A stretch of 64,000 nt of DNA from Pseudomonadota bacterium. GTDB lineage: Bacteria > Bdellovibrionota > FAC87 > UBA2466. The first letter of the stretch is position 1, and the number at the start of each line of letters is the position of its first letter. This document shows positions 3,765 to 14,574 of the stretch, in pieces. Under the pieces are notes generated by a model, which saw nothing but the letters and a program-made list of their open reading frames with translations, was not told the DNA's origin and did not search any database. Made by a program: the position numbers and the translations under genes. Where the stretch lies: NCBI GenBank assembly GCA_009927005.1, contig RFNV01000210.1, forward strand, positions 5,725 through 69,724. The letters are read 5' to 3'.

Positions 3765-4640
3765 ATGAAAAAAATTACACAAACCCTTCTAGTCCCTCTT
3801 GCTTTTACTTTTATTGTTAGCTGCACAGGCTCCAAACCAGTGGCGATGGTTGGAGATAAAAAAATCACAAAAAATGATGTTGAACTTCGTCTGAGTATGA
3901 TGAAAGTTTTCAATCCTCAAATGAACGAAAAAGCAGCTGTGGAACAATTGATTCGTTCCGAAACTTTGCTTCAAATCTTAAAAAATAAAGGTATTGAAGT
4001 GAAGGACCAAATGGTCGAAATGGAAATGACCAAATTAAAGGGGACTAGTAAAAACAATCCTAAATTAGAAGCTCTCATGAAGGATTATGGCTCTAAGAAA
4101 AAATTCAAAGATCTCTACATCGTCCCCACCTTAGTTGAGGGACTAGCCTTCAGAGAAGCTTTCCAAAAAGATACCGTTTTTCATAAAGAAGAAAATGAAA
4201 AGATGGAAAAACTTTTAGCTGCAGTTAAAAGCAATCCTTCTAAGTTGGAAGAATCTGCCAAACAAATGGGAGTTTCTTTGAAAAAAGGCGTGATTAAAGA
4301 CAAAGAGGGTTTAACTTGGGATTCCTCAGACCGAGACGTTGCCCATATGCCAGTTTTGCCAAGTGGAGTAGGCTTCGGCCAGTTCTTTAAAAAGATGGTT
4401 CTAGAAAAAACCCCCACGGGTAAAGTGAGCGAGAAAGTGGAAACTATTGGTCAACTCATGGCAGTGGTCAGAAATGATAGTTCCTCAAAAGACTCATCCA
4501 AATTTACAGTTGCGATGGTCGCCCGAAAAAACTTTGGAGACTGGTTTAACCAAAATAGTCAGTCCATCAAAGTAAACCGACTTGAGGAAGCCAACGCAAA
4601 TGCTCAAAAGTCGCCAATGCCCGCTACAAAAACGAACTAG
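3765..4640 (+). CDS. lipoprotein with SurA-N-like chaperone domain (hypothetical)
   Basis: Likely start is ATG 3765, preceded by a GAGGAG ribosome-binding site at 3752-3757; the ORF track extends it to a TTG at 3750. Lipobox FIVSC follows the signal peptide. MVGDKKITKNDVELRL...EQLIRSETLLQ resembles the SurA N-terminal / PpiC-type chaperone region. Confidence 0.55.
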   Translation: MKKITQTLLVPLAFTFIVSCTGSKPVAMVGDKKITKNDVELRLSMMKVFNPQMNEKAAVEQLIRSETLLQILKNKGIEVKDQMVEMEMTKLKGTSKNNPKLEALMKDYGSKKKFKDLYIVPTLVEGLAFREAFQKDTVFHKEENEKMEKLLAAVKSNPSKLEESAKQMGVSLKKGVIKDKEGLTWDSSDRDVAHMPVLPSGVGFGQFFKKMVLEKTPTGKVSEKVETIGQLMAVVRNDSSSKDSSKFTVAMVARKNFGDWFNQNSQSIKVNRLEEANANAQKSPMPATKTN

Positions 4641-6455: not shown

Positions 6456-6548
6456 ATGCTCAACTAATATTTCTTTTTGAGTCGATTTGGCAAAAGAAAT
6501 GTTAAAATAAAGGCGTTTTCCACGACTATAAATAAGGGTAACTCGCTC

Positions 6549-7229
6549 ATGGCTCAAAAGATGGTCCATCTTCGGGGGGTAGGGGTTCAATACTCGCCCA
6601 GTCGTTTTGCTCTCAGAGACGTGTCGTTTGACTTAGGCCGAGGTGAATTTGCCTATATTACTGGGGCAAATGGGGCTGGCAAAACGACTCTCTTGAAAAT
6701 TCTCTTCGCTATGGAACGTCCAAGTGAAGGAAATATCTACGTTAATAATCGAGAAGTCTCGACTCTCCCCAAAAATCAGATTTATCAATACCGACGGGAA
6801 GTGGGGTTTGTTTTTCAAGATTTCAAGCTCTTGCCCGACTTAACGATTTACGACAACGTCGCTCTTCCCCTGGAAATTAGAAAAATGACTCCTGGAGAGG
6901 TAGACCACCGAGTCCGAGGGGTTCTTTCCTTGGTCGGCTTAGGGGATCGAGCTCATGATTATCCTCAGATGCTTTCTGGAGGGGAACAACAACGAGTTTC
7001 TATTGCCCGCTCGATTATTGGCCGCCCTTCTCTCCTACTCGCAGACGAACCGACGGGGAACCTCGACAGCAACACGGCTCGAGATATCATGTCCCTCTTT
7101 TTAGAAATCAATGACATGGGAACTACCGTTCTCATAGCGACTCATGATGAAGGCTTGATGACCGAATTCCCTGCTCGAACCATTCGGCTCCAGGGCGGAC
7201 GCCTCGTCACTGAACGAGGTCGAGCTTAA
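6549..7229 (+). CDS. ftsE: cell-division ABC ATPase FtsE
   Basis: Walker [13 protein letters not shown] signature [13 protein letters not shown] and Walker [13 protein letters not shown] are present. Immediately followed by ftsX. Start is ATG 6549 or 6561; the ORF-track 6477 start is probably too long. Confidence 0.9.
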
Positions 7230-7233
7230 ATCC

Positions 7234-8124
7234 ATGAACCACCAACTCAGGCCCCTCAAAAAGACCTTAAAGAGTTTCAAAAGACAGCCCCTTCTTCATT
7301 TAGCCAGCATTGCGACGATTAGCGTATCGTGCCTCATCATGGGATCGTTCTTCTTGGGCTACCGAAATTTTGAAAGCATTGCGGAAAAGACGAACCCCCA
7401 CATGACGGGAACAGTTTATCTCAAGGAAGGGCTCAACGATAATCAGATAGCTCTTCTCAAAGAAAATATTTTAAGCCAAGAAAATGTTCTTAAAGCCGCT
7501 TTTAAGTCGAAAAGAAAAGTAGCAGACGAACTCCAAGTGTTTTTGGGAACCACGGGATCTGAAATTCTCCCTGGAAGCGAATTATTTCCGGATCTCATCG
7601 AACTTGAACTCAACCCCGAAACCACTTCTCAAGAAATTGCCGCTCTAAAGTCGATACTCGGCAAAGATCTGCAGATTGCAGAAGTGGACTTTTCAGAGGA
7701 TTGGCTCACTCAATACAAGAAAGTAAGAAGCATTCTCACCACGATTGGTTGGGTTTTGATCTCAGCTCTTGTCATTGGATGTGGGTTTATCATTGCGAAC
7801 TTCATGGGAATGCGTCATCAGTCCCGAAAAGAAGAAATGGAAATCGTTCAGTTGATTGGCGCTGAAACTTCTTTTGTCTTAGCTCCGTTCCTCTGGGAAG
7901 GAATCATTGAAGGGGTTTTGGGAGCTGGTTTTTCTATGACTCTTTTATTATTAGCAAAGTGGTTACTAGGAGATGTTTTGGCTAGCAACTGGGGTTCAGT
8001 GCTTGGCGTTTCCTCCTGGATGTTTCTTTCCGTTGCTCAGTGCTTACTTCTTCTATTTGTGGGAATTACCATGGCTCTTGTGGGTAGCATTGCTGTCTTT
8101 TTGAGAACTTCGGAGCACGTTTAG
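7234..8124 (+). CDS. ftsX: cell-division permease-like protein FtsX
   Basis: 296 aa. N-terminal TM segment, periplasmic domain and three C-terminal TM helices. Sits directly downstream of ftsE in the usual operon arrangement. Confidence 0.85.
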   Translation: MNHQLRPLKKTLKSFKRQPLLHLASIATISVSCLIMGSFFLGYRNFESIAEKTNPHMTGTVYLKEGLNDNQIALLKENILSQENVLKAAFKSKRKVADELQVFLGTTGSEILPGSELFPDLIELELNPETTSQEIAALKSILGKDLQIAEVDFSEDWLTQYKKVRSILTTIGWVLISALVIGCGFIIANFMGMRHQSRKEEMEIVQLIGAETSFVLAPFLWEGIIEGVLGAGFSMTLLLLAKWLLGDVLASNWGSVLGVSSWMFLSVAQCLLLLFVGITMALVGSIAVFLRTSEHV

Positions 8125-8126
8125 GA

Positions 8127-9284
8127 ATGAGTTTTCACTCTTTTTTGGCCCTTTTCATTTCAGTGTCCTGCGTTTGCTCTGCCCTGGAGCTTTCAGACAC
8201 AAAAGAAGTTCAAAAACGTGCGAATACCTTAAAAAAATTTCTCCAATCAGAAAAAGCTGATTACGAATCGAGAGAAACTCAAAGAAAAACTCTTTTAGAA
8301 TCGCTTGATGACCTCAACTCGAAGCAAAATCAGGTCCGCCAAAAACTACAGGCTCTCACAAACCACCAACAAGAATTAGAAATGAGCTTGGAGAACCTAG
8401 GCCTCGAATACCAGAATCAGAAGAAACTAGAGCAAGCTCAAAGGCAGCGTCTCTATCTCCTCTTAAAAGTGGTTTATAAAATTCAAAAAGAAGGGATGAC
8501 CCGTTTTGTTTTCTATGGTCAAAACCTCTCTCAACTAGCGGGAAGGATTCGAGTCCTTCTCTACACGCTTCGCTCTCATGCTCAACTGACTCGTCAATTT
8601 CAAGAAAGAACCCAGAAATTAGCTGAAGCCGAACTAAAACTGAAAGCGACTAAACTCAAATTAACCGGTCTTTCTGACGAACTAAAAGATCAACAACTTT
8701 TGTTGGCTAATTTGCTAAAAAACAAGAACCGCCTCGTTTCTCAGATTAATGAGAAGCAAAGTTCCTACCGTTTGGCTTCTAAAGAATACCAACGCATTTC
8801 TACTCAGCTAAGCCAACTCTTCAAAGAACTTCCCTCCGCGAAAAAGGGAACGGACAAGGGAGTTTTTGAACCCAAAGGAAATCTTCCGATGCCAACGGAG
8901 GGAGTTATCGTTCAGGGTTTTGGAAAAAGTGTTCATGAAAAATTTGGCACAGTTACTTATCACAAGGGCATTGAAATTGAGGCTGAGTTTAACTCGCCTG
9001 TTTCTGCAATCCTTCCGGGAGGAGTGGAGTTTGCAGGTTGGCTAAGGGGCTTAGGCAATGTGATTATTCTTCACCATGGCCAGGGGCTTTACACACTGAA
9101 TGCCCACTTATTTAAGTTCAATAAGAAAGTCGGAGAGAGTGTAGAAGCCGGAGAAGTCGTTGGGTTTGTGGGGGACACCGGCAACCGCGAAAAACCAAGT
9201 TTATATTTTGAAGTGCGATCGAATGGCAAAGCAGTCGATCCGCTAGCTTATCTTTCTTCAGGGCCTATAGAACAGAAGGGTTAA
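8127..9284 (+). CDS. EnvC-like murein hydrolase activator (coiled-coil plus LytM/M23 domain)
   Basis: Signal peptide, long Q/K/L-rich coiled coil and a C-terminal M23/LytM domain (HKGIEIEAEFNSPVSAILPGGVEFAGWLRGLGNVIILHHGQGLYTLNAHL). Conserved ftsEX-envC neighbourhood. Confidence 0.8.
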   Translation: MSFHSFLALFISVSCVCSALELSDTKEVQKRANTLKKFLQSEKADYESRETQRKTLLESLDDLNSKQNQVRQKLQALTNHQQELEMSLENLGLEYQNQKKLEQAQRQRLYLLLKVVYKIQKEGMTRFVFYGQNLSQLAGRIRVLLYTLRSHAQLTRQFQERTQKLAEAELKLKATKLKLTGLSDELKDQQLLLANLLKNKNRLVSQINEKQSSYRLASKEYQRISTQLSQLFKELPSAKKGTDKGVFEPKGNLPMPTEGVIVQGFGKSVHEKFGTVTYHKGIEIEAEFNSPVSAILPGGVEFAGWLRGLGNVIILHHGQGLYTLNAHLFKFNKKVGESVEAGEVVGFVGDTGNREKPSLYFEVRSNGKAVDPLAYLSSGPIEQKG

Positions 9285-11943
9285 CCACAAACTCTTCTTC
9301 AGCAGCTTCTTTCAGCATTTTTTCTGCCGTTTCAGCAATGCTTTCGGCATCTAAATGATGGAGTTCGAAAATATCCCAAGTCGTTCCCGACTTAGATGTT
9401 TTTCTCACAGAAAGGCTGTGGTGTTTTACACCAACAATCGACCCGATATTATCGAGAAGCCCTGGCTCTCCGTCATGAACTGACACAATGGGAACTCTCC
9501 CACTCTTAAGAGACAACCACTCTCCTCGATTTGAAATCTCTTTTGGGTTGATTGAATGCAGATAGAGATTTCCCGAAATACCCAAGCCCTCTTTGAGGTG
9601 CTCATAGGTATCGTGGTAAGCAAAGTTTCCTAAAAGCAGATCGGAACTCGTCACTACAAACACGTTTGCGTAAATCCCCTGCTCAAGGAGCTTATCCGAA
9701 GCTTTCAGAGCTTCTGGAACAAGCGCCCCCATGGCGAAAAGGTGAACGACGTTGTCCCCAGGACGGTAGTCTTCAAATCCTTGATAATCGATGAGCGCGT
9801 AAGCCCCTTTGAGGGTGTGCTGCCGAATCGTTTCAAGAATTTCACTATCCGTTTGGCCCTCGAAACGTTTTTGCTTTTTTAATCTCTCAAGTAACTCTTT
9901 TTGGACAATACCTTTGGTCACCCCTCGAATGAGAACCGACTCTCTATCTTGATTCTCCTGAGTGAAATGTCTTCTTAAGTGGTCGGCTAAAATCCACTCA
10001 AGCTCTTTAGCAAAACAGGGTTCCCAAGTAACACAGTTAGGAATTTGAAAATCTGATTTCCAAGAATGCTGGGCTCCCTCAGCGGCCAAAGTCACACCAC
10101 TCGGAGTTCCAATCGTGGCAAAAGCAGAGTGCCAATAGAGATTGTAATAGAGCTGATCATGCGCACGCTTAATAAAAAAGTCGTAGATCGTCATCGAAGG
10201 GAAAAAAGGAATTCCCGTAAAATAGAAGAACTTTCCAAAGGATCCTGCTGCTGACATGCAGTTACCTTCAGCGATTTCAAATCGAATATGGCCAGTACGT
10301 TTATCTAAGTGAGGAACCACATCGGGAGCTTTGGTGTCTTTTGCGCCATACTCTGCTTCGAAATCTTCTTGGCCAATATCTCCGTAGAGCTTTCCATTCA
10401 TGTTGGGGCTCGTATTTGTAGAGCTTCCCACATCAGGGGCCATGGTCATAAAGTACTTAGCTACTTTAGCCCATTGCTTATCATTCTCTGTTTCGGCTTT
10501 GGCGTTTCCATGCGCCAATCGATCAAGCTTCGCAGCAATTTGCCCCCACATCCATTGCGTGTGTGCAATCGGACTAAACTTTAGGGCAGTGATATCGAAA
10601 TCCGTTGGGAAATCCACTGCTCGAACCTCTTTAAGCCAGTTCTCTTTTCTTTGCTCAATCTGCTTAATGAGTTTTTCAATTCCCTCGGTCAGTTCTTTTC
10701 TTCGAGTGACAAGAAACTTTTCTTCGGCCGTGCTGCTATCAAAGTCCTGAAAAGGATCTTCGTGAGAAGTGCCGAGCCGCTTACTCATCTCGATAAGTTC
10801 ATCTTCTTCGGGCATAGCCGAGTGATTTCCCGAGTGTCCTGCACAGCGAAGACTGTGCCCTTTGATGGTATAAGCAACTAAGAGGGTGGGACGCTTTGGG
10901 TGTTTTTTTGCTTCTTGAAATACTTCTACCAAGCTCTCAATGTCATGGCCGCCAAAGTTGTAAAAGATTTTTCCGAGTTCATCATCACTGAGTTCTTTTA
11001 AAAACTTTTGAAGTTTTGCTGATTTTTTACCCAGCACTTCGCGAATCAACTTTAGGTTTTGAGAAGATACTAACGCTTGAAGTTCAAAATCTGTGATTTC
11101 TTCATCTAAAACTCGCTTGAGTTCCTCCCCCCCTGGTTTCTTAAAGGCTTTTTCGCGAATTTTTCCGTGTTTTAGCTTAACACTTCTCCACCCGTTGGCT
11201 TCTCCAAGACGGCAAATTCTGTCGGCATCGCTTCCACCCAGAGCTTCTTCGTTTAGGATTCGAGTGCCATCTAGATTCTGTCGGTTGTAATCAACTATCC
11301 AAACTAAGTTTCCTAACTGTCTTTCTCCTGCATCGGGCATTGCTTCCATTAAGGAGCCTTCTCGAAATTCAGAGTCTCCCATAATGCAGTAAAAAGTGGG
11401 ATCCTCTTGAAGATCGTACCCATGGTCTTTGGCAAAAGCGTATCCGAGACTTGTATAAAGGGCGTTTACTGGCGGAATCCCAACAGAGCCCGATGGATAG
11501 TACCGAAAAGAATCGGGATCACTCTCCGCGTGGTAAGACTGAAAAACGGGTTCTCCAGTTTTTGAAAAATGCCGCAGGTTTCTCATCGCTACTTGGCGAT
11601 CGGAGAGCTCCATCCGGTTGCCTTCTTTGTCTCGAAAATTATGGAGCAAAAAATTAAACGCGTGATCTAGGGGCGAAATGTGTGGCTTACAAGCCAAGTA
11701 GTCTTCTGGCTTTCGCATCACGAGATGAATGGCAGCTAAAATATGCTTGGAAGAAGCACAAGCTGTGGGATGGCCGCCCACTTTGGGTTCGCCCTTTTCT
11801 TTCAGAGGGCGGTGATTAGCCAAATGGATCATTTCGAGCGCTAACCAATAAGCGCGATCAGTAATGCGGTGCAGCACATCAAAGTTTAGGCCTTGAGCAG
11901 AGGTCGATTTTTCTTTGGTGTTTTTTTTAGTTTCTGTCCTCAT
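9265..11943 (-). CDS. aceE: pyruvate dehydrogenase E1 component, homodimeric type (AceE family)
   Basis: 892 aa. GGHPTACASS and FYCIMGDSEFREGSLMEAMPDAGERQLGNLVWIVDYNRQNLDG align with E. coli AceE (GGHMASFQSS...FLGDGEMDEPES...NLVFVINCNLQRLDG). No E2 or E3 gene is adjacent. Confidence 0.85.
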   Translation of the reverse strand: MRTETKKNTKEKSTSAQGLNFDVLHRITDRAYWLALEMIHLANHRPLKEKGEPKVGGHPTACASSKHILAAIHLVMRKPEDYLACKPHISPLDHAFNFLLHNFRDKEGNRMELSDRQVAMRNLRHFSKTGEPVFQSYHAESDPDSFRYYPSGSVGIPPVNALYTSLGYAFAKDHGYDLQEDPTFYCIMGDSEFREGSLMEAMPDAGERQLGNLVWIVDYNRQNLDGTRILNEEALGGSDADRICRLGEANGWRSVKLKHGKIREKAFKKPGGEELKRVLDEEITDFELQALVSSQNLKLIREVLGKKSAKLQKFLKELSDDELGKIFYNFGGHDIESLVEVFQEAKKHPKRPTLLVAYTIKGHSLRCAGHSGNHSAMPEEDELIEMSKRLGTSHEDPFQDFDSSTAEEKFLVTRRKELTEGIEKLIKQIEQRKENWLKEVRAVDFPTDFDITALKFSPIAHTQWMWGQIAAKLDRLAHGNAKAETENDKQWAKVAKYFMTMAPDVGSSTNTSPNMNGKLYGDIGQEDFEAEYGAKDTKAPDVVPHLDKRTGHIRFEIAEGNCMSAAGSFGKFFYFTGIPFFPSMTIYDFFIKRAHDQLYYNLYWHSAFATIGTPSGVTLAAEGAQHSWKSDFQIPNCVTWEPCFAKELEWILADHLRRHFTQENQDRESVLIRGVTKGIVQKELLERLKKQKRFEGQTDSEILETIRQHTLKGAYALIDYQGFEDYRPGDNVVHLFAMGALVPEALKASDKLLEQGIYANVFVVTSSDLLLGNFAYHDTYEHLKEGLGISGNLYLHSINPKEISNRGEWLSLKSGRVPIVSVHDGEPGLLDNIGSIVGVKHHSLSVRKTSKSGTTWDIFELHHLDAESIAETAEKMLKEAAEEEFVVNPSVL

Positions 11944-12003: not shown

Positions 12004-12552
12004 CTACTCATCCCCCACTTCGGGCTCACTTCCCGAGCTTAGGTATCGGCCATATTCTTTAGTAAAAGCCAGGCGGGTCAGATCCGTGATTCTATCAATA
12101 TAAAGCTTTCCCAGAAGGTGGTCACATTCGTGTTGGATGACGGTGGCAGCAAACCCCTTCGCTTCAAACCCTACCCTTTCCCCTTTTTGGTCTAAAGCTC
12201 TTACTTTAATCCAATGAGGCCGGGGGACATCCCCTTGGAGACCGGGCACACTTAAACACCCCTCCGGAAAAGTAGAGGTTTCCTGAGTAAGGGGTTCAAT
12301 CTCTGGATTAATGAGCACTTTTAAATAGGGTTCAACCCCTGGATCAAAATCCCAAATCATCACGACGATTTGAAGGCTTACGTGAATTTGGGGAGCGGCA
12401 AGCCCGCGACCATCGTATTCGACCATGGTCTCTACCATGTCTTGGATGAGCGTTTGGATAGCTTCAGAAGATATCTCTGTTTCAGGAACCGGCTGGGCTA
12501 CTTGCCTTAGAATGGGGTGCCCCATCACTGCTACTTTTCGAATCGCCATCAC
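12004..12552 (-). CDS. def: peptide deformylase
   Basis: All three PDF motifs are present: GLAAPQI, EGCLSVPG and HECDHLLG. Confidence 0.9.
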   Translation of the reverse strand: MMAIRKVAVMGHPILRQVAQPVPETEISSEAIQTLIQDMVETMVEYDGRGLAAPQIHVSLQIVVMIWDFDPGVEPYLKVLINPEIEPLTQETSTFPEGCLSVPGLQGDVPRPHWIKVRALDQKGERVGFEAKGFAATVIQHECDHLLGKLYIDRITDLTRLAFTKEYGRYLSSGSEPEVGDE

Positions 12553-12558
12553 AATCTC

Positions 12559-13071
12559 CTACAAACTAACGCCCAGTTCTTTCATCTCTTCAATGATTTT
12601 AAGTCGATTGTAGAGATTCACTTTAGGACCTTCGAGAGGCTGGTACACATCTTTTGTGTAATAACCGGTCGTCAAATAAAGCCCTTTTGCACTGGTGACG
12701 CTTTTGATGAAATCTTTAAATTCCAAAATTGTGGCCATGGAAACATAGGGGTTTTCGGGAGTGGCTTGATGAAAGCCAAGCACATAGCTGCCCCAGAAAA
12801 GCTCATTCTTACTTTCAGCAACCCAATACACTTCTGTTTCGTCAATGGGGATAGTAGTTTTAAGAACTAAATCATTTTTTTCGCAAATTTTTTCTCCCAG
12901 TCGATAGAGATCATTCAGAGATAGAGCCCGAACCGCTTTAGGATCACGAGCCTCATCGTCCTCAGGAGGGGCAAACTGAATCGGCTGAGGAGGGCTGTTT
13001 TTAGTTATAAAAACAGAAAGGAGCATCCCTAGAAAAATAGCGCCAAATGCAATTGCTAAAATACTAAACAT
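12559..13071 (-). CDS. membrane-anchored hypothetical protein, possible restriction-endonuclease-like (Mrr_cat-type) domain
   Basis: 170 aa. N-terminal TM helix ILAIAFGAIFLGMLLSVFI. The C-terminal KGLYLTTGYYTKDV...VNLYNRLKIIEE segment resembles the C-terminal core of the Mrr_cat / PD-(D/E)xK restriction-endonuclease fold, and D...ESK may be the catalytic triad. Overlaps the upstream upp-like gene by 8 nt. The fold assignment is tentative. Confidence 0.45.
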   Translation of the reverse strand: MFSILAIAFGAIFLGMLLSVFITKNSPPQPIQFAPPEDDEARDPKAVRALSLNDLYRLGEKICEKNDLVLKTTIPIDETEVYWVAESKNELFWGSYVLGFHQATPENPYVSMATILEFKDFIKSVTSAKGLYLTTGYYTKDVYQPLEGPKVNLYNRLKIIEEMKELGVSL

Positions 13072-13975
13072 AAGAGTTATTAATCACTTCACCCAAGCCC
13101 CCCGCGCCGGGAACAATGTATTGCTTGGGGTTTAATCCCTTTTCCTGATCCCAATGAGTGCCTGGAACCGTATCTAAAATATCGGCAGAACTTAATCCCC
13201 TATCAAGCCGTAACGCATAGACGATGACACTGGGATCTGTTTGCCTTAAGAGCTTCAAGTACTCAGGAGTGATCACCAAATGAATGGCGATGAACTTTTT
13301 GGGCTTTCCGAGCTTTTGATAAATTTCAATGGCGGAAAGAATCGTGGAGCCCGTTGCCCCCATGGGATCGGGAACAATGACAATTCTATCTTGGACATCA
13401 CCGCCAATTTTGAGGCCGCCCAACTGAGTTCCAATCACCTGTTCTTTTGCATCCGTTTTTCGATTGATACTGATATGATCTTGCCGGACTCCATCGGGAT
13501 TTAAAAAATAATTGAAGGCATCAAAACAAATTTGAGACGGAACGGTTCCGGCCCGAGCGAGGCTTACACAAGTTACTTTAGTATCGGGATCAATGACCTT
13601 GGCTTTAAAAGCCCCTTGCGGGTGCTGGGCTTTCATTCGGGTTTCGACAGTCGCCTCAACTAATGGAAATTCCTGATTTACGACTACTTTTACGAGTTCC
13701 CGATAAAGCGTATTTAAAAGCGAGTTGATAAGAGGCTGCTTGCAATCAGGGCGGCCAAGCTTAGCCAAAGTGGTGAAGAGGTAGGGATCACTTAAAATAT
13801 GGATGTTTTGCCCGTATCGATGCTCGATTTGGGAAATCAGGTATTCTTGTTTTAAGTATTGATTATCTTGAAGCATATCAACGGCAAAACACTCTTTTCG
13901 ACGACTAATGTCAAGTAAATGGCGAAAATAGTTGCTGGGCTTGGGTTTTGCGACAACCTTGACCACTCTTTTCAA
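13064..13975 (-). CDS. upp: uracil phosphoribosyltransferase-family protein (extended)
   Basis: 303 aa. PRPP-binding motif IVIVPDPMGATGSTI and C-terminal YIVPGAGGLGE match the UPRTase YIIPGLGDAGD motif. It carries a ~55-aa N-terminal extension and an insertion before the C-terminal motif, compared with 208-aa E. coli Upp. Confidence 0.7.
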   Translation of the reverse strand: MKRVVKVVAKPKPSNYFRHLLDISRRKECFAVDMLQDNQYLKQEYLISQIEHRYGQNIHILSDPYLFTTLAKLGRPDCKQPLINSLLNTLYRELVKVVVNQEFPLVEATVETRMKAQHPQGAFKAKVIDPDTKVTCVSLARAGTVPSQICFDAFNYFLNPDGVRQDHISINRKTDAKEQVIGTQLGGLKIGGDVQDRIVIVPDPMGATGSTILSAIEIYQKLGKPKKFIAIHLVITPEYLKLLRQTDPSVIVYALRLDRGLSSADILDTVPGTHWDQEKGLNPKQYIVPGAGGLGEVINNSYV

Positions 13976-14007
13976 TGTTAGGTAAGAGAAAGTTTTGGGG
14001 GAATTTC

Positions 14008-14574
14008 ATGCAGCTATCGCTAGGCCTTGATGAACACGTCGTTTTTGACCTGGAAACCACGGGTCTTTCCGCTTGGGGCGATGAAATCATCGAAATTGGG
14101 GCAATCAAGATCTTAGGCAATGAAATTGATGAAAAAAATACATTTCATTCGTTGGTGAACCCCAAGCGACTCATTCCCCCCGAAGCCACGGCGATCAGTG
14201 GGATCACAAACGATATGGTCAAGGATGCCCCAAAAATCGATGAAGTATTGCCCAGGTTTTTAGATTTTGTCGGAGATGCCTATTGGGTAGCCCATAACGC
14301 CCGATTCGATATGTCATTTATCATGAAGCACTTGATGCAAATGAAAGTAAAACGACAAATTGAAGTTTACGATACAGTGATTTTTTCAAGACGAGCATTC
14401 CCGGGAGAACAACGTCACAATTTAGATGTGCTTTGCCAACGCTTGTCTTTAACTTTCGATCCGAAAACTCGACACCGTTCTATGACCGACGTCGAACTCA
14501 CTGCAAAAGCCTTCGTGCTTTTAAAAGAACGGCTCGGGGACAAGTGTCCTGCTCGCGAAAAATATTCGATTTGA
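14008..14574 (+). CDS. DnaQ-like (DEDDh) 3'-5' exonuclease domain protein
   Basis: Exo I motif VVFDLETTGL, Exo II YWVAHNARFDMSF and Exo III HRSMTDVELTAKAF are present. Start set at ATG 14008, because the ORF-track start at 13975 overlaps the divergent gene's start. Confidence 0.8.
   Translation: MQLSLGLDEHVVFDLETTGLSAWGDEIIEIGAIKILGNEIDEKNTFHSLVNPKRLIPPEATAISGITNDMVKDAPKIDEVLPRFLDFVGDAYWVAHNARFDMSFIMKHLMQMKVKRQIEVYDTVIFSRRAFPGEQRHNLDVLCQRLSLTFDPKTRHRSMTDVELTAKAFVLLKERLGDKCPAREKYSI

Follow-up and report, generated by a model that had tools for sequence, protein, structure and literature searches.

The genes at the locus and their surroundings

The locus lies in a DNA stretch of 64,000 nucleotides, which we call the window, and consists of a co-directional block of genes on the reverse strand that faces one divergent gene. 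The block begins with a UPRTase-like gene (UPL), which is followed by a gene for a protein of 170 residues (p170), by def and by an aceE-like gene. The genes and features discussed below are the following:

13975..14574, (+), divergent: gene of an RNase_T/DEDDh-type 3'-5' exonuclease (Pfam RNase_T, 1.3e-43)
13877..13974, 98 nt: divergent intergenic region, miscalled as UPL codons 1-33
13064-13975, (-): UPL as given by the ORF lister, 303 aa
13064..13876, (-): UPL, corrected, 270 aa, ATG at 13876
13343..13372, (-): PRPP-binding loop PDPMGATGST, UPL residues 169-178, invariant in 22 of 22 aligned members
13067..13120, (-): C-terminal motif of UPL, YIVPGAGGLGEVINNSYV, residues 253-270, nearly invariant
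13064..13071, (-): overlap of UPL and p170, ATGTTTAG, 8 nt, with the p170 start codon within the last UPL codons and stop
12559..13071, (-): p170, 170 aa, predicted to span the membrane once and to carry a degenerate Mrr_cat-fold domain
13006..13062, (-): predicted transmembrane helix of p170, residues 4-22, mean Kyte-Doolittle value 2.7
12955..12969, (-): acidic juxtamembrane motif PPEDD, p170 residues 35-39
12574..12924, (-): Mrr_cat-type PD-(D/E)xK-fold domain, p170 residues 50-166, catalytic motif replaced
12004..12549, (-): def, peptide deformylase (Pfam Pep_deformylase, 3.5e-51), likely start ATG 12549
9265..11943, (-): aceE-like gene of a 2-oxo-acid dehydrogenase E1, with which the co-directional block ends

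Among the relatives that carry p170 the gene order is fixed, with the RNase_T-like gene pointing away from UPL, p170, def and aceE, and the core-gene surroundings (def, aceE and ftsEX) are constant across the clade and vertically inherited. All related loci that extend far enough carry the RNase_T gene in divergent orientation, and this holds for the loci without p170 as well. The aceE-like gene, whose orthologues match Transketolase_N and PDH_E1_M, is 64-95% identical in all related loci that are long enough, except L026. In 27 of the 32 related loci def comes after p170; one locus ends before def and four are without it (L028, L029 and L031 run straight to aceE, and L026 has neither gene).

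The 8-nt overlap between the two genes, which had been noticed in the sequence beforehand, is present at 13064-13071. Together with the adjacency of the genes it recurs in about 30 species-level relatives, all of them MAGs of Bdellovibrionota. The junction reads ATGTTTAR in 28 of the 31 related loci listed (29 with L023), and in L026, where the p170 gene is intact, the overlap shrinks to the 4 nt ATGA if the start is the second ATG, as a tblastn match suggests. Even at a p170 identity of 38% the overlap and the order of the genes are strictly preserved, which would be expected of interacting partners and counts against our best explanation given below. Since the ATG of p170 lies 5 nt before the UPL stop and has no good Shine-Dalgarno sequence, the layout of the junction suggests that ribosomes probably reach p170 by termination-reinitiation, with the amounts of p170 and UPL in a fixed ratio. 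The def start follows 9 nt past the p170 stop, and the AGGAG before it overlaps that stop.

We were not able to find regulatory elements that stand out at the locus. A promoter and terminator scan gave matches that were not above the level of shuffled sequence (11 terminator-like sites in the region, with 7.3 +/- 3.0 expected), and it found no consensus sigma-70 site in the 98-nt divergent region. From the start of UPL to that of aceE the coding strand has a single terminator-like hairpin, which falls within the UPL coding sequence (13346-13360). Rfam gave no match in the operon and the intergenic regions, including the 98-nt divergent one. Overall, the locus looks like a housekeeping operon of a freshwater, uncultured lineage of Bdellovibrionota, with one uncharacterised passenger.

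A divergent protein of the UPRTase family

The assignment of the first protein to the UPRTase family stands, with a match to Pfam UPRTase PF14681 at 6e-17 and 62.2 bits (cutoff 27), while the length of 303 aa that went with it has to be given up in favour of 270 aa. The longer form starts at TTG 13975, a position that is also the first base of the ATG of the divergent RNase_T gene. Its residues 1-33 show no protein-level conservation beyond very close relatives. In distant relatives the homology sets in only at residue 34, and among the relatives listed no other length is nearly as frequent as 270 aa, so that we place the real start at ATG 13876. The atypical extensions that had been described are real in this form too, which is still about 62 aa longer than canonical Upp; the extra length falls on the N-terminus (about 22 aa), an internal region (about 19 aa) and the stretch before the C-terminal motif (about 21 aa).

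UPL scores below both NCBIfam equivalog cutoffs for upp (59.9 vs 208.35 bits for TIGR01091 and 61.9 vs 114 for NF001097). On the other hand, its AF2 model (pLDDT 83.8) and the Foldseek search with it show the type-I PRTase/UPRTase fold: some 25 UPRTase chains from 10 organisms were found with E between 1e-16 and 1e-13 and a target-normalised TM-score of about 0.8, and over the UPRTases this score ranged from 0.79 to 0.85 at 18-24% identity. Only in the PRPP loop is the sequence significantly similar to that of solved UPRTases, where the loop aligns to DPMLATGGS of 1i5e and 2ehj. The Asp-Pro in this loop is specific to UPRTases.

The C-terminal motif YIVPGAGGLGEVINNSYV is the counterpart of the canonical base-binding loop YIVPGLGDxGDR. 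The loop itself reads YIVPGAGGLGEV in UPL, compared with Y-I-x-P-G-L-G-D-x-G-D-R in the canonical enzymes. Note that the HMM alignments end before this loop, and that it was mapped onto the UPRT of T. gondii by eye. In the T. gondii enzyme the base is contacted by I229, G234, D235 and F236, and the side chain of D235 contacts O2 of the base (PMC10970046). According to the by-eye alignment the main-chain contact positions I229, G234 and F236 are kept in UPL as I254, G259 and L261, and so are both glycines of the loop, whereas the position of D235 is taken by an invariant G260. Residues 255-270 have a pLDDT below 50 in the monomer model.

Because the UPRTase fold, the invariant PDPMGATGST loop and the base-contact positions apart from D235 are all kept, sequence and model together suggest that UPL is probably a divergent but active phosphoribosyltransferase of the UPRTase family. 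The replacement of the base-loop Asp by Gly260 could accompany a changed base specificity. Between relatives UPL is 61-95% identical, and it is conserved about as well as its neighbours aceE and def.

A membrane-anchored protein that has lost the Mrr nuclease residues

We collected 80 homologues of p170, 65 of which have between 165 and 177 aa, and found 19 invariant residues; homologues shorter than 165 aa are probably partial gene calls. With a dN/dS of 0.04-0.05 the gene is under strong purifying selection. The 27 genome loci with a p170 relative all come from MAGs, most of which are named Bdellovibrio-like, and the names under which the remaining ones were deposited are broad or older (Deltaproteobacteria, Pseudomonadota or "bacterium").

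The single N-terminal transmembrane helix proposed at the outset agrees with all that we see. The hydrophobic segment at residues 4-22 is conserved in the family, with mean Kyte-Doolittle values of 2.6-3.3 in the 32 full-length proteins among the 34 aligned members, and the AF2 model has a helix at residues 4-24. We considered a signal peptide and rejected it: the N-terminus is without a charged n-region and without an AxA-type site, and its hydrophobic core has 19-20 residues. Within the subfamily there is no K/R in the three-residue N-terminal tail, and there are one to five directly after the helix; distant relatives with a transmembrane helix and an Mrr_cat domain mostly have two to four at this place. 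Because of this distribution p170 is probably a single-pass inner-membrane protein with its domain in the cytoplasm. This topology comes from charge counting only, and the acidic stretch after the helix could, on the contrary, favour export. The suggestion that prey nucleic acid is broken down at the membrane fits poorly with it, as prey nucleic acid would be in the periplasm, whereas the K/R distribution puts the domain in the cytoplasm.

The domain itself is predicted to have the restriction-endonuclease-like core (AF2 pLDDT 82.9, alpha-beta-beta-beta-alpha-beta), and the predicted fold matches Mrr-type nucleases. The p170 of the window stays below the cutoff of Pfam Mrr_cat PF04471 (15.4 bits, E 0.021, with a cutoff of 21) and matches profile positions 59-113 only. 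In the family as a whole, Mrr_cat matches are found in 30 of 34 members, two of which pass the cutoff (P0017 and P0069, with 24.9 and 25.8 bits over profile positions 8-113). The C-terminal resemblance to Mrr_cat pointed out in the initial annotation therefore holds at the level of the family, with the window protein itself subthreshold. A profile search against the PDB sequences gave chance-level matches, except for a weak alignment with AspBHI in which "FALEAK" of the enzyme is aligned with "YIVHCL" of the p170 family, that is, E-A-K with H-C-L.

As to the catalytic residues, the D...ESK core read from the sequence at first does not survive: K88 is not conserved, and E86-S87 are at the end of strand beta2 and not on beta3, so that we rejected E86-S87-K88 as a catalytic motif. 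In a joint alignment with the distant relatives the position of the Mrr Asp (the acidic residue of beta2, E-x-[DE]-I-x-A) is Y82, conserved to at least 90%, and beta3 reads Y-V-L-G99-F-x101. The (E/Q)xK positions thus correspond to G99, where 31 of 34 aligned members have Gly or Ala, and to residue 101, a variable position with His in the window protein and Lys in no member of the p170 family nor of the wider family. In summary, p170 keeps the Mrr_cat fold without the Asp and the (E/Q)xK nuclease residues of a PD-(D/E)xK catalytic core, and from alignment and model we infer that it has no nuclease activity. Of the readings offered beforehand, the one favoured by this evidence is that of a degenerate REase fold used for something else.

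Several invariant polar residues are specific to the subfamily, namely those of PPEDD, of E117-F-K-D120 and of Q144-P-L-E-G. In the PPEDD linker (pLDDT 66-72) E37 and D39 are invariant and P35 is nearly so. They may belong to an interface or to an active site of an unconventional kind. We regard the p170 family as a modestly interesting case, a real and conserved new subfamily of seemingly inactive REase-fold membrane proteins with a hypothetical functional link to uracil salvage.

Possible roles of p170 and known systems

The pairing of the two genes is kept in all loci with p170. It is missing from a sister clade, in which the RNase_T gene (rnt) is followed by UPL-def-aceE with no p170 at the locus (L039 and L041). 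The UPLs without p170 form a clade of their own, and a single position, D30N, discriminates them from the UPLs with p170; we looked here for an adaptation of UPL to an interface and found no signal. Since this operon is otherwise the same in the sister clade, UPL does not seem to depend on p170 at the locus, and the arrangement looks like an ordinary housekeeping operon rather than a new salvage-nuclease machine. The fold family does not seem to have a UPRTase-specific role either, as the distant relatives with a transmembrane helix and an Mrr_cat domain adjoin unrelated genes, with a PRTase neighbour in none of six contexts. Because of the sister clade, these unrelated neighbours and the lack of a match to any defence model, a dedicated salvage-plus-nuclease module is unlikely, and the proposed coupling of uracil salvage with nucleic-acid breakdown loses its ground where an almost unchanged UPL does without p170.

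In our best explanation the locus is a housekeeping operon with a probably active UPL, and p170 is a membrane-tethered, non-enzymatic Mrr_cat-fold module; we put its probability at roughly 0.55. The protein would be a clade-specific inner-membrane protein with its domain in the cytoplasm, translated by reinitiation after UPL, in a fixed ratio to it, and it may bind a protein or a nucleic-acid or nucleotide ligand or act as a scaffold for it.

It is possible, if unlikely, that p170 serves UPL specifically, as a receptor in the membrane or as a regulator, and holds it at the cytoplasmic face of the inner membrane, where the dead-nuclease domain or the PPEDD linker would bind UPL, and imported uracil or a prey-derived base would be phosphoribosylated and so trapped on entry. 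This would agree with the overlap and adjacency in every p170 locus (about 30 lineages at the species level, with p170 as little as 38% identical), with the strong purifying selection on p170 and with its invariant surface-type residues, which are specific to the subfamily and missing from the wider family. The invariant C-terminus of UPL is predicted to be disordered in the monomer and could need a partner; for animal UPRTs there has been a proposal of a cofactor or of a partner that binds uracil, a precedent for the idea only (PMC4536494). On the other hand, the adjacency is not specific to the pair, because the whole neighbourhood is syntenic, and no nucleobase transporter gene is found within the block. 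The sister clade, with its near-identical UPL, and the six distant contexts speak against a receptor as well. The stronger version, in which a dead nuclease fold and a PPEDD tether make p170 a purpose-built receptor that docks UPL for membrane-localised base trapping, we consider quite improbable.

We give very little weight to an active membrane nuclease with an unconventional site (e.g. E80 together with E117, K119 and D120 from helix alpha2) that feeds the salvage enzyme. The fold is that of Mrr-type nucleases, and the acidic E80 near the usual site and the E-F-K-D on the next helix are conserved, the latter invariantly. Migration of catalytic residues is a known phenomenon among PD-(D/E)xK enzymes; in this fold, however, helix alpha2 and the active site are normally on opposite faces of the sheet. 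Also against such an activity are the replaced Mrr positions (Y82, G99 and the variable 101), the predicted cytoplasmic location of the domain and the fact that a UPRTase takes free uracil, several enzymatic steps away from the products of a nuclease. The diversity of the PD-(D/E)xK superfamily has been described elsewhere (PMC3424549). Least credible of all seems a defence or conflict module that combines a PRTase-type effector with a REase-fold sensor, comparable to some retron or anti-phage systems. PRTase-family and REase-fold domains do both occur in anti-phage systems, and JGI labels some distant relatives "restriction system protein". However, neither p170 nor UPL has a match in PADLOC (E up to 0.1), the locus shows no composition anomaly, the context of core genes (def, aceE, ftsEX) is fixed and vertically inherited across the clade, and UPL is conserved like housekeeping genes.

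In a conservative reading, with p170 taken as a non-enzymatic module, the value of these results is mostly one of annotation. UPL has a corrected start and 270 instead of 303 aa, "hypothetical protein" can be replaced by [quoted passage not shown], and a restriction-enzyme label for the p170 family in databases is unwarranted. p170 would be a further case of a REase fold reused non-enzymatically, here on a membrane anchor and in an operon of core genes. If p170 were a receptor after all, it would be a testable case of a pseudo-nuclease that recruits a salvage enzyme to the membrane, would bear on the capture of nucleobases by Bdellovibrio-like bacteria, and would be a modern version of the old "group translocation by PRTases" idea in a lineage that is believed to feed on the nucleic acids of its prey.

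A literature search found nothing relevant on Bdellovibrio together with UPRTase, nor on membrane-anchored inactive Mrr domains, and we compared the two proteins with the systems that come closest. UPL shares with canonical Upp (TIGR01091/PRK00129; 1i5e, 2ehj, 1o5o) the fold and the D-P-M-x-A-T-G PRPP loop and, according to the by-eye alignment, the Y-I-V-P-G-x-G base loop. It differs from it by its insertions (270 aa compared with about 208 aa) and by the replacement of both Asp residues of GLGDxGD (G260 and E263).

The Mrr_cat enzymes (PF04471; E. coli Mrr, MspJI, AspBHI, AF1548/1y88 and the nuclease domain of LlaBIII) have an Asp on beta2 where p170 has Tyr82, and an (E/Q)xK motif on beta3 where p170 has Gly99 and the variable residue 101. 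Unlike these restriction enzymes, p170 comes as one small protein of 170 aa that has no partner domain for DNA recognition or ATPase activity, is anchored to the membrane and is encoded in a housekeeping operon. Non-catalytic PD-(D/E)xK domains are known as well (the N-terminal domain of eukaryotic RPB5, PF03871; RecC; "inactive REase" domains such as Pfam NA-iREase1). They have no detectable sequence relationship to p170 (NA-iREase1, for example, has no match among the aligned members) and differ from it in taxon and in the architecture with a membrane anchor. The closest likeness is to the wider family of proteins of 160-195 aa with a transmembrane helix and an Mrr_cat domain, which are detectable homologues of p170 (E 1e-4 to 1e-18, 15-24% identity) annotated as hypothetical or as "restriction system protein". 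They have the same length, an N-terminal helix followed by K/R, the domain and no catalytic Lys. Many of them keep the acidic residue of beta2 that p170 is without, whereas PPEDD and EFKD are features of p170 that they lack, and their neighbours are cytochrome b/c genes, glnD or mqnA-like genes and not a UPRTase gene.

Gene layout and the identity of UPL

On the minus strand of the window, the ORF listing gives a tight co-directional block that comprises the ORF of a UPRTase-like protein (UPL), a 170-aa protein (p170), def and an aceE-like gene:

13064-13975, minus strand, UPL ORF as listed (303 aa, TTG start)
12559-13071, minus strand, p170 ORF (170 aa)
12004-12552 as listed, minus strand, def, with its start 9 nt past the p170 stop
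9265-11943, minus strand, aceE-like E1 gene (892 aa)
13975-14574, plus strand, DEDDh/RNase_T-type 3'-5' exonuclease gene, divergent from the UPL gene
13877-13974, divergent intergenic region (98 nt), before the corrected UPL start

The UPL and p170 ORFs have 8 nt in common (ATGTTTAG), the AGGAG ahead of def overlaps the p170 stop codon, and the base composition of the region is flat. Judging from positions, overlap, neighbours and composition, the observation of the initial annotation (two ORFs overlapping by 8 nt, followed by def and an aceE-like gene) is therefore real.

The length of 303 aa had to be corrected. The TTG at 13975 is the same base at which the ATG of the divergent gene begins. 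In distant relatives, protein-level homology starts only at residue 34 of the 303-aa ORF, UPL homologues align from MLxDxQY onward, and among the 120 closest of them no other length is nearly as common as 270 aa. On these alignments and lengths, the true start is the ATG at 13876, which gives a protein of 270 aa. The TTG start of the ORF lister adds 33 codons and abuts the divergent ATG (window 13877-13975); the gene calls of most relatives give 270 aa, and a similar over-extension is seen in several public gene calls (289-311 aa).

With 62 bits, UPL clears the Pfam cutoff for UPRTase (27) but lies far under the NCBIfam upp equivalog cutoffs. Its sequence identity to solved UPRTases is only about 20%, the PRPP loop being the one segment of significant similarity, and its AF2 model (pLDDT 83.8) superposes on PDB UPRTases from 10 organisms with a target-normalised TM-score (TMt) of about 0.8. 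The PDPMGATGST loop is invariant in the family alignment and carries the Asp-Pro that sets UPRTases apart from other type-I PRTases. The C-terminal base loop, YIVPGAGGLGEV, was mapped by eye onto the base contacts of T. gondii UPRT, where the side chain of Asp235 touches O2 of the base (PMC10970046); in this mapping, both glycines and the positions of main-chain contact are kept in UPL, but Asp235 falls on the invariant Gly260. Judged from sequence and model, UPL is probably an active, divergent enzyme of the UPRTase family, and one whose base specificity is uncertain. It does have the atypical extensions ascribed to it, but they are shorter than claimed, with about 22 aa added N-terminally, about 19 aa internally and about 21 aa ahead of the C-terminal loop. 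Residues 256-270 (window 13067-13111), PGAGGLGEVINNSYV, are strictly invariant. They have the lowest confidence in the AF2 monomer model (pLDDT <50), even though canonical UPRTases have their active-site loop at the corresponding place. The p170 start, which overlaps the final 8 nt of the gene, puts a further constraint on these.

Anchor, fold and catalytic positions of p170

p170 is a real gene under selection, with a dN/dS of 0.04-0.05 against close relatives and 19 invariant residues in an alignment of 34 family members. Searches detect 80 close homologues, of which 65 measure 165-177 aa; the others are shorter and are likely to be incomplete gene calls. Where a source name is given, as for a few of them, it is "hypothetical". 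Residues 4-22 are strongly hydrophobic in all full-length members. The N-tail of three residues is free of K/R, whereas one to five K/R come right after the helix (two to four in distant relatives of the same TM+Mrr_cat architecture); by the positive-inside rule the domain would thus be cytoplasmic.

In the AF2 model (pLDDT 82.9), a lower-confidence linker with the invariant motif PPEDD connects the TM helix to an alpha-beta-beta-beta-alpha-beta-alpha-beta-alpha domain, for which Foldseek finds MspJI and RPB5. The window protein scores below the Pfam Mrr_cat threshold (15.4 bits, threshold 21); Mrr_cat is matched by 30 of the 34 family members, two of which pass the cutoff (profile positions 8-113). 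The Mrr_cat fold proposed earlier is therefore correct.

In Mrr-type domains, catalysis relies on an Asp that opens beta2 and on (E/Q)xK in beta3. A full-library profile search recovered the distant TM+Mrr_cat relatives; in a joint alignment, many of them have E-x-[D/E]-I-x-A in beta2 and ...[Q/H]-C-x in beta3, and the p170 subfamily has E80-V-Y82-W-V-A and Y96-V-L-G99-F100-x101. A weak HMM alignment, which agrees with the Pfam coordinates, places F-A-L-E-A-K of AspBHI on Y-I-V-H-C-L of the family. From these three sources, the catalytic Asp therefore maps to Tyr82, the E/Q to Gly99 and the Lys to a variable residue, His101 in the window protein. The motif Lys is absent from every member of the wider family in the joint alignment. 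We rejected "ESK" (86-88) as a catalytic motif: it sits where beta2 ends, and the family does not conserve its Lys. The suggested D...ESK core thus did not hold, and p170 is, on its sequence, best described as a pseudo-nuclease. Residues invariant specifically in its subfamily (PPEDD, E117-F-K-D120 and Q144-P-L-E-G) are the best handle for experiments.

Conservation of the pairing and its exceptions

Relatives of p170 occur at 27 loci in GTDB species-representative genomes. All are MAGs, mostly named Bdellovibrio-like and otherwise placed under broad or older names, from sources that include lakes, groundwater and glacier-fed streams; the nearest relative is in 'Bdellovibrio sp. ZAP7'. The pairing is not absent from these p170-bearing genomes: UPL (61-95% identical) lies directly upstream of p170 in all loci long enough to judge. 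An ATGTTTAR junction gives the same 8-nt overlap in related loci, except for one shorter overlap, apparently ATGA (locus L026). Nearly all loci keep the order rnt (the divergent RNase_T gene) / UPL-p170-def-aceE; of three distant contigs examined that far, two continue with ftsEX and an M23 peptidase gene in convergent orientation. Since the whole neighbourhood is syntenic, the adjacency of UPL and p170 is not specific to the pair.

Going by synteny with loci L001 and L002, the genes that run towards the aceE end in the window (6477-9284, plus strand) are ftsE/ftsX and an EnvC-like M23 peptidase gene; L001 and L002 have the same trio after aceE, and L041 has an M23 gene there. L028, L029 and L031 (about 4486-4633), which belong to the most divergent genomes with p170, lack def in the block, and aceE comes directly after p170; def is therefore not a fixed operon member. 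Every related locus that covers the position, whether it carries p170 or not, has the DEDDh/RNase_T gene (13975-14574, plus strand) in the same divergent place. Among PADLOC models, this gene fits a generic 'DEDDh, CAS-associated' one best, but its context is housekeeping.

Two loci, L039 and L041, have UPL homologues (64-66% identical) in the same synteny with no p170, and def starts 7-9 nt past the UPL stop. In a midpoint-rooted NJ tree, the UPLs of these loci group as a separate clade next to the p170-bearing one. The two groups can be told apart at only one UPL position, D30N, so nothing in UPL points to its having adapted to a partner.

None of the six contexts examined for distant TM+Mrr_cat relatives has a PRTase neighbour. 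In four, cytochrome b, Rieske or cytochrome c genes lie within a few kb (L035:1542-2054, P0213; L036:5001-5495, P0214; L037:5001-5522, P0211; L038:5001-5510, P0217), and a recurring association of the wider family with bc-type respiratory gene clusters is possible. The wider Lys-less proteins are 160-195 aa long, and a 55-64-aa ORF precedes three of the four cytochrome-linked members. In another of the six contexts, the gene of the distant relative P0210 (L033:452-949) shares its first 7 nt with the end of an upstream gene (L033:3-458) whose C-terminus looks, by sequence, like the ACT domains of GlnD-type uridylyltransferases; tight upstream coupling thus recurs in the family with a different partner.

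Possible role of p170

The syntenic neighbourhood, the p170-less loci and the unrelated neighbours of distant relatives argue against a dedicated UPL-p170 module, and the coupling of salvage to a nuclease that the initial annotation envisaged is not borne out. The best reading overall, to which we give a probability of about 0.55, is an ancestral housekeeping operon with a dead-nuclease membrane binding or scaffold protein, co-made with UPL and dispensable to it. p170 would have been either gained by one clade or lost by its sister clade. It would be a small inner-membrane protein whose cytoplasmic, catalytically dead Mrr_cat-fold domain has a binding or scaffolding function. Termination-reinitiation at the overlap would keep its synthesis in a fixed ratio to that of UPL, but UPL would have no need of it.

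The conserved overlap and adjacency would also fit a true membrane receptor that localises salvage by the divergent UPRTase at the membrane; with p170-less loci and only D30N between the groups, we consider this rather unlikely. That p170 is an unconventional active nuclease, as was hoped, agrees with the fold and is very improbable given the replaced motif positions. Least probable of all is a defence module, despite the restriction-endonuclease-like fold, as neither UPL nor p170 matches a defence-system model.

Mrr_cat has been grouped with 1y88 in a superfamily that includes inactive homologues and the RPB5 domain (PMC3424549). The wider TM+Mrr_cat family is already in databases, unnamed and sometimes labelled 'restriction system protein'. 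Inactive REase-fold domains are thus already known, and p170 adds to them a member with a well-conserved, functionally uninterpreted operon context.
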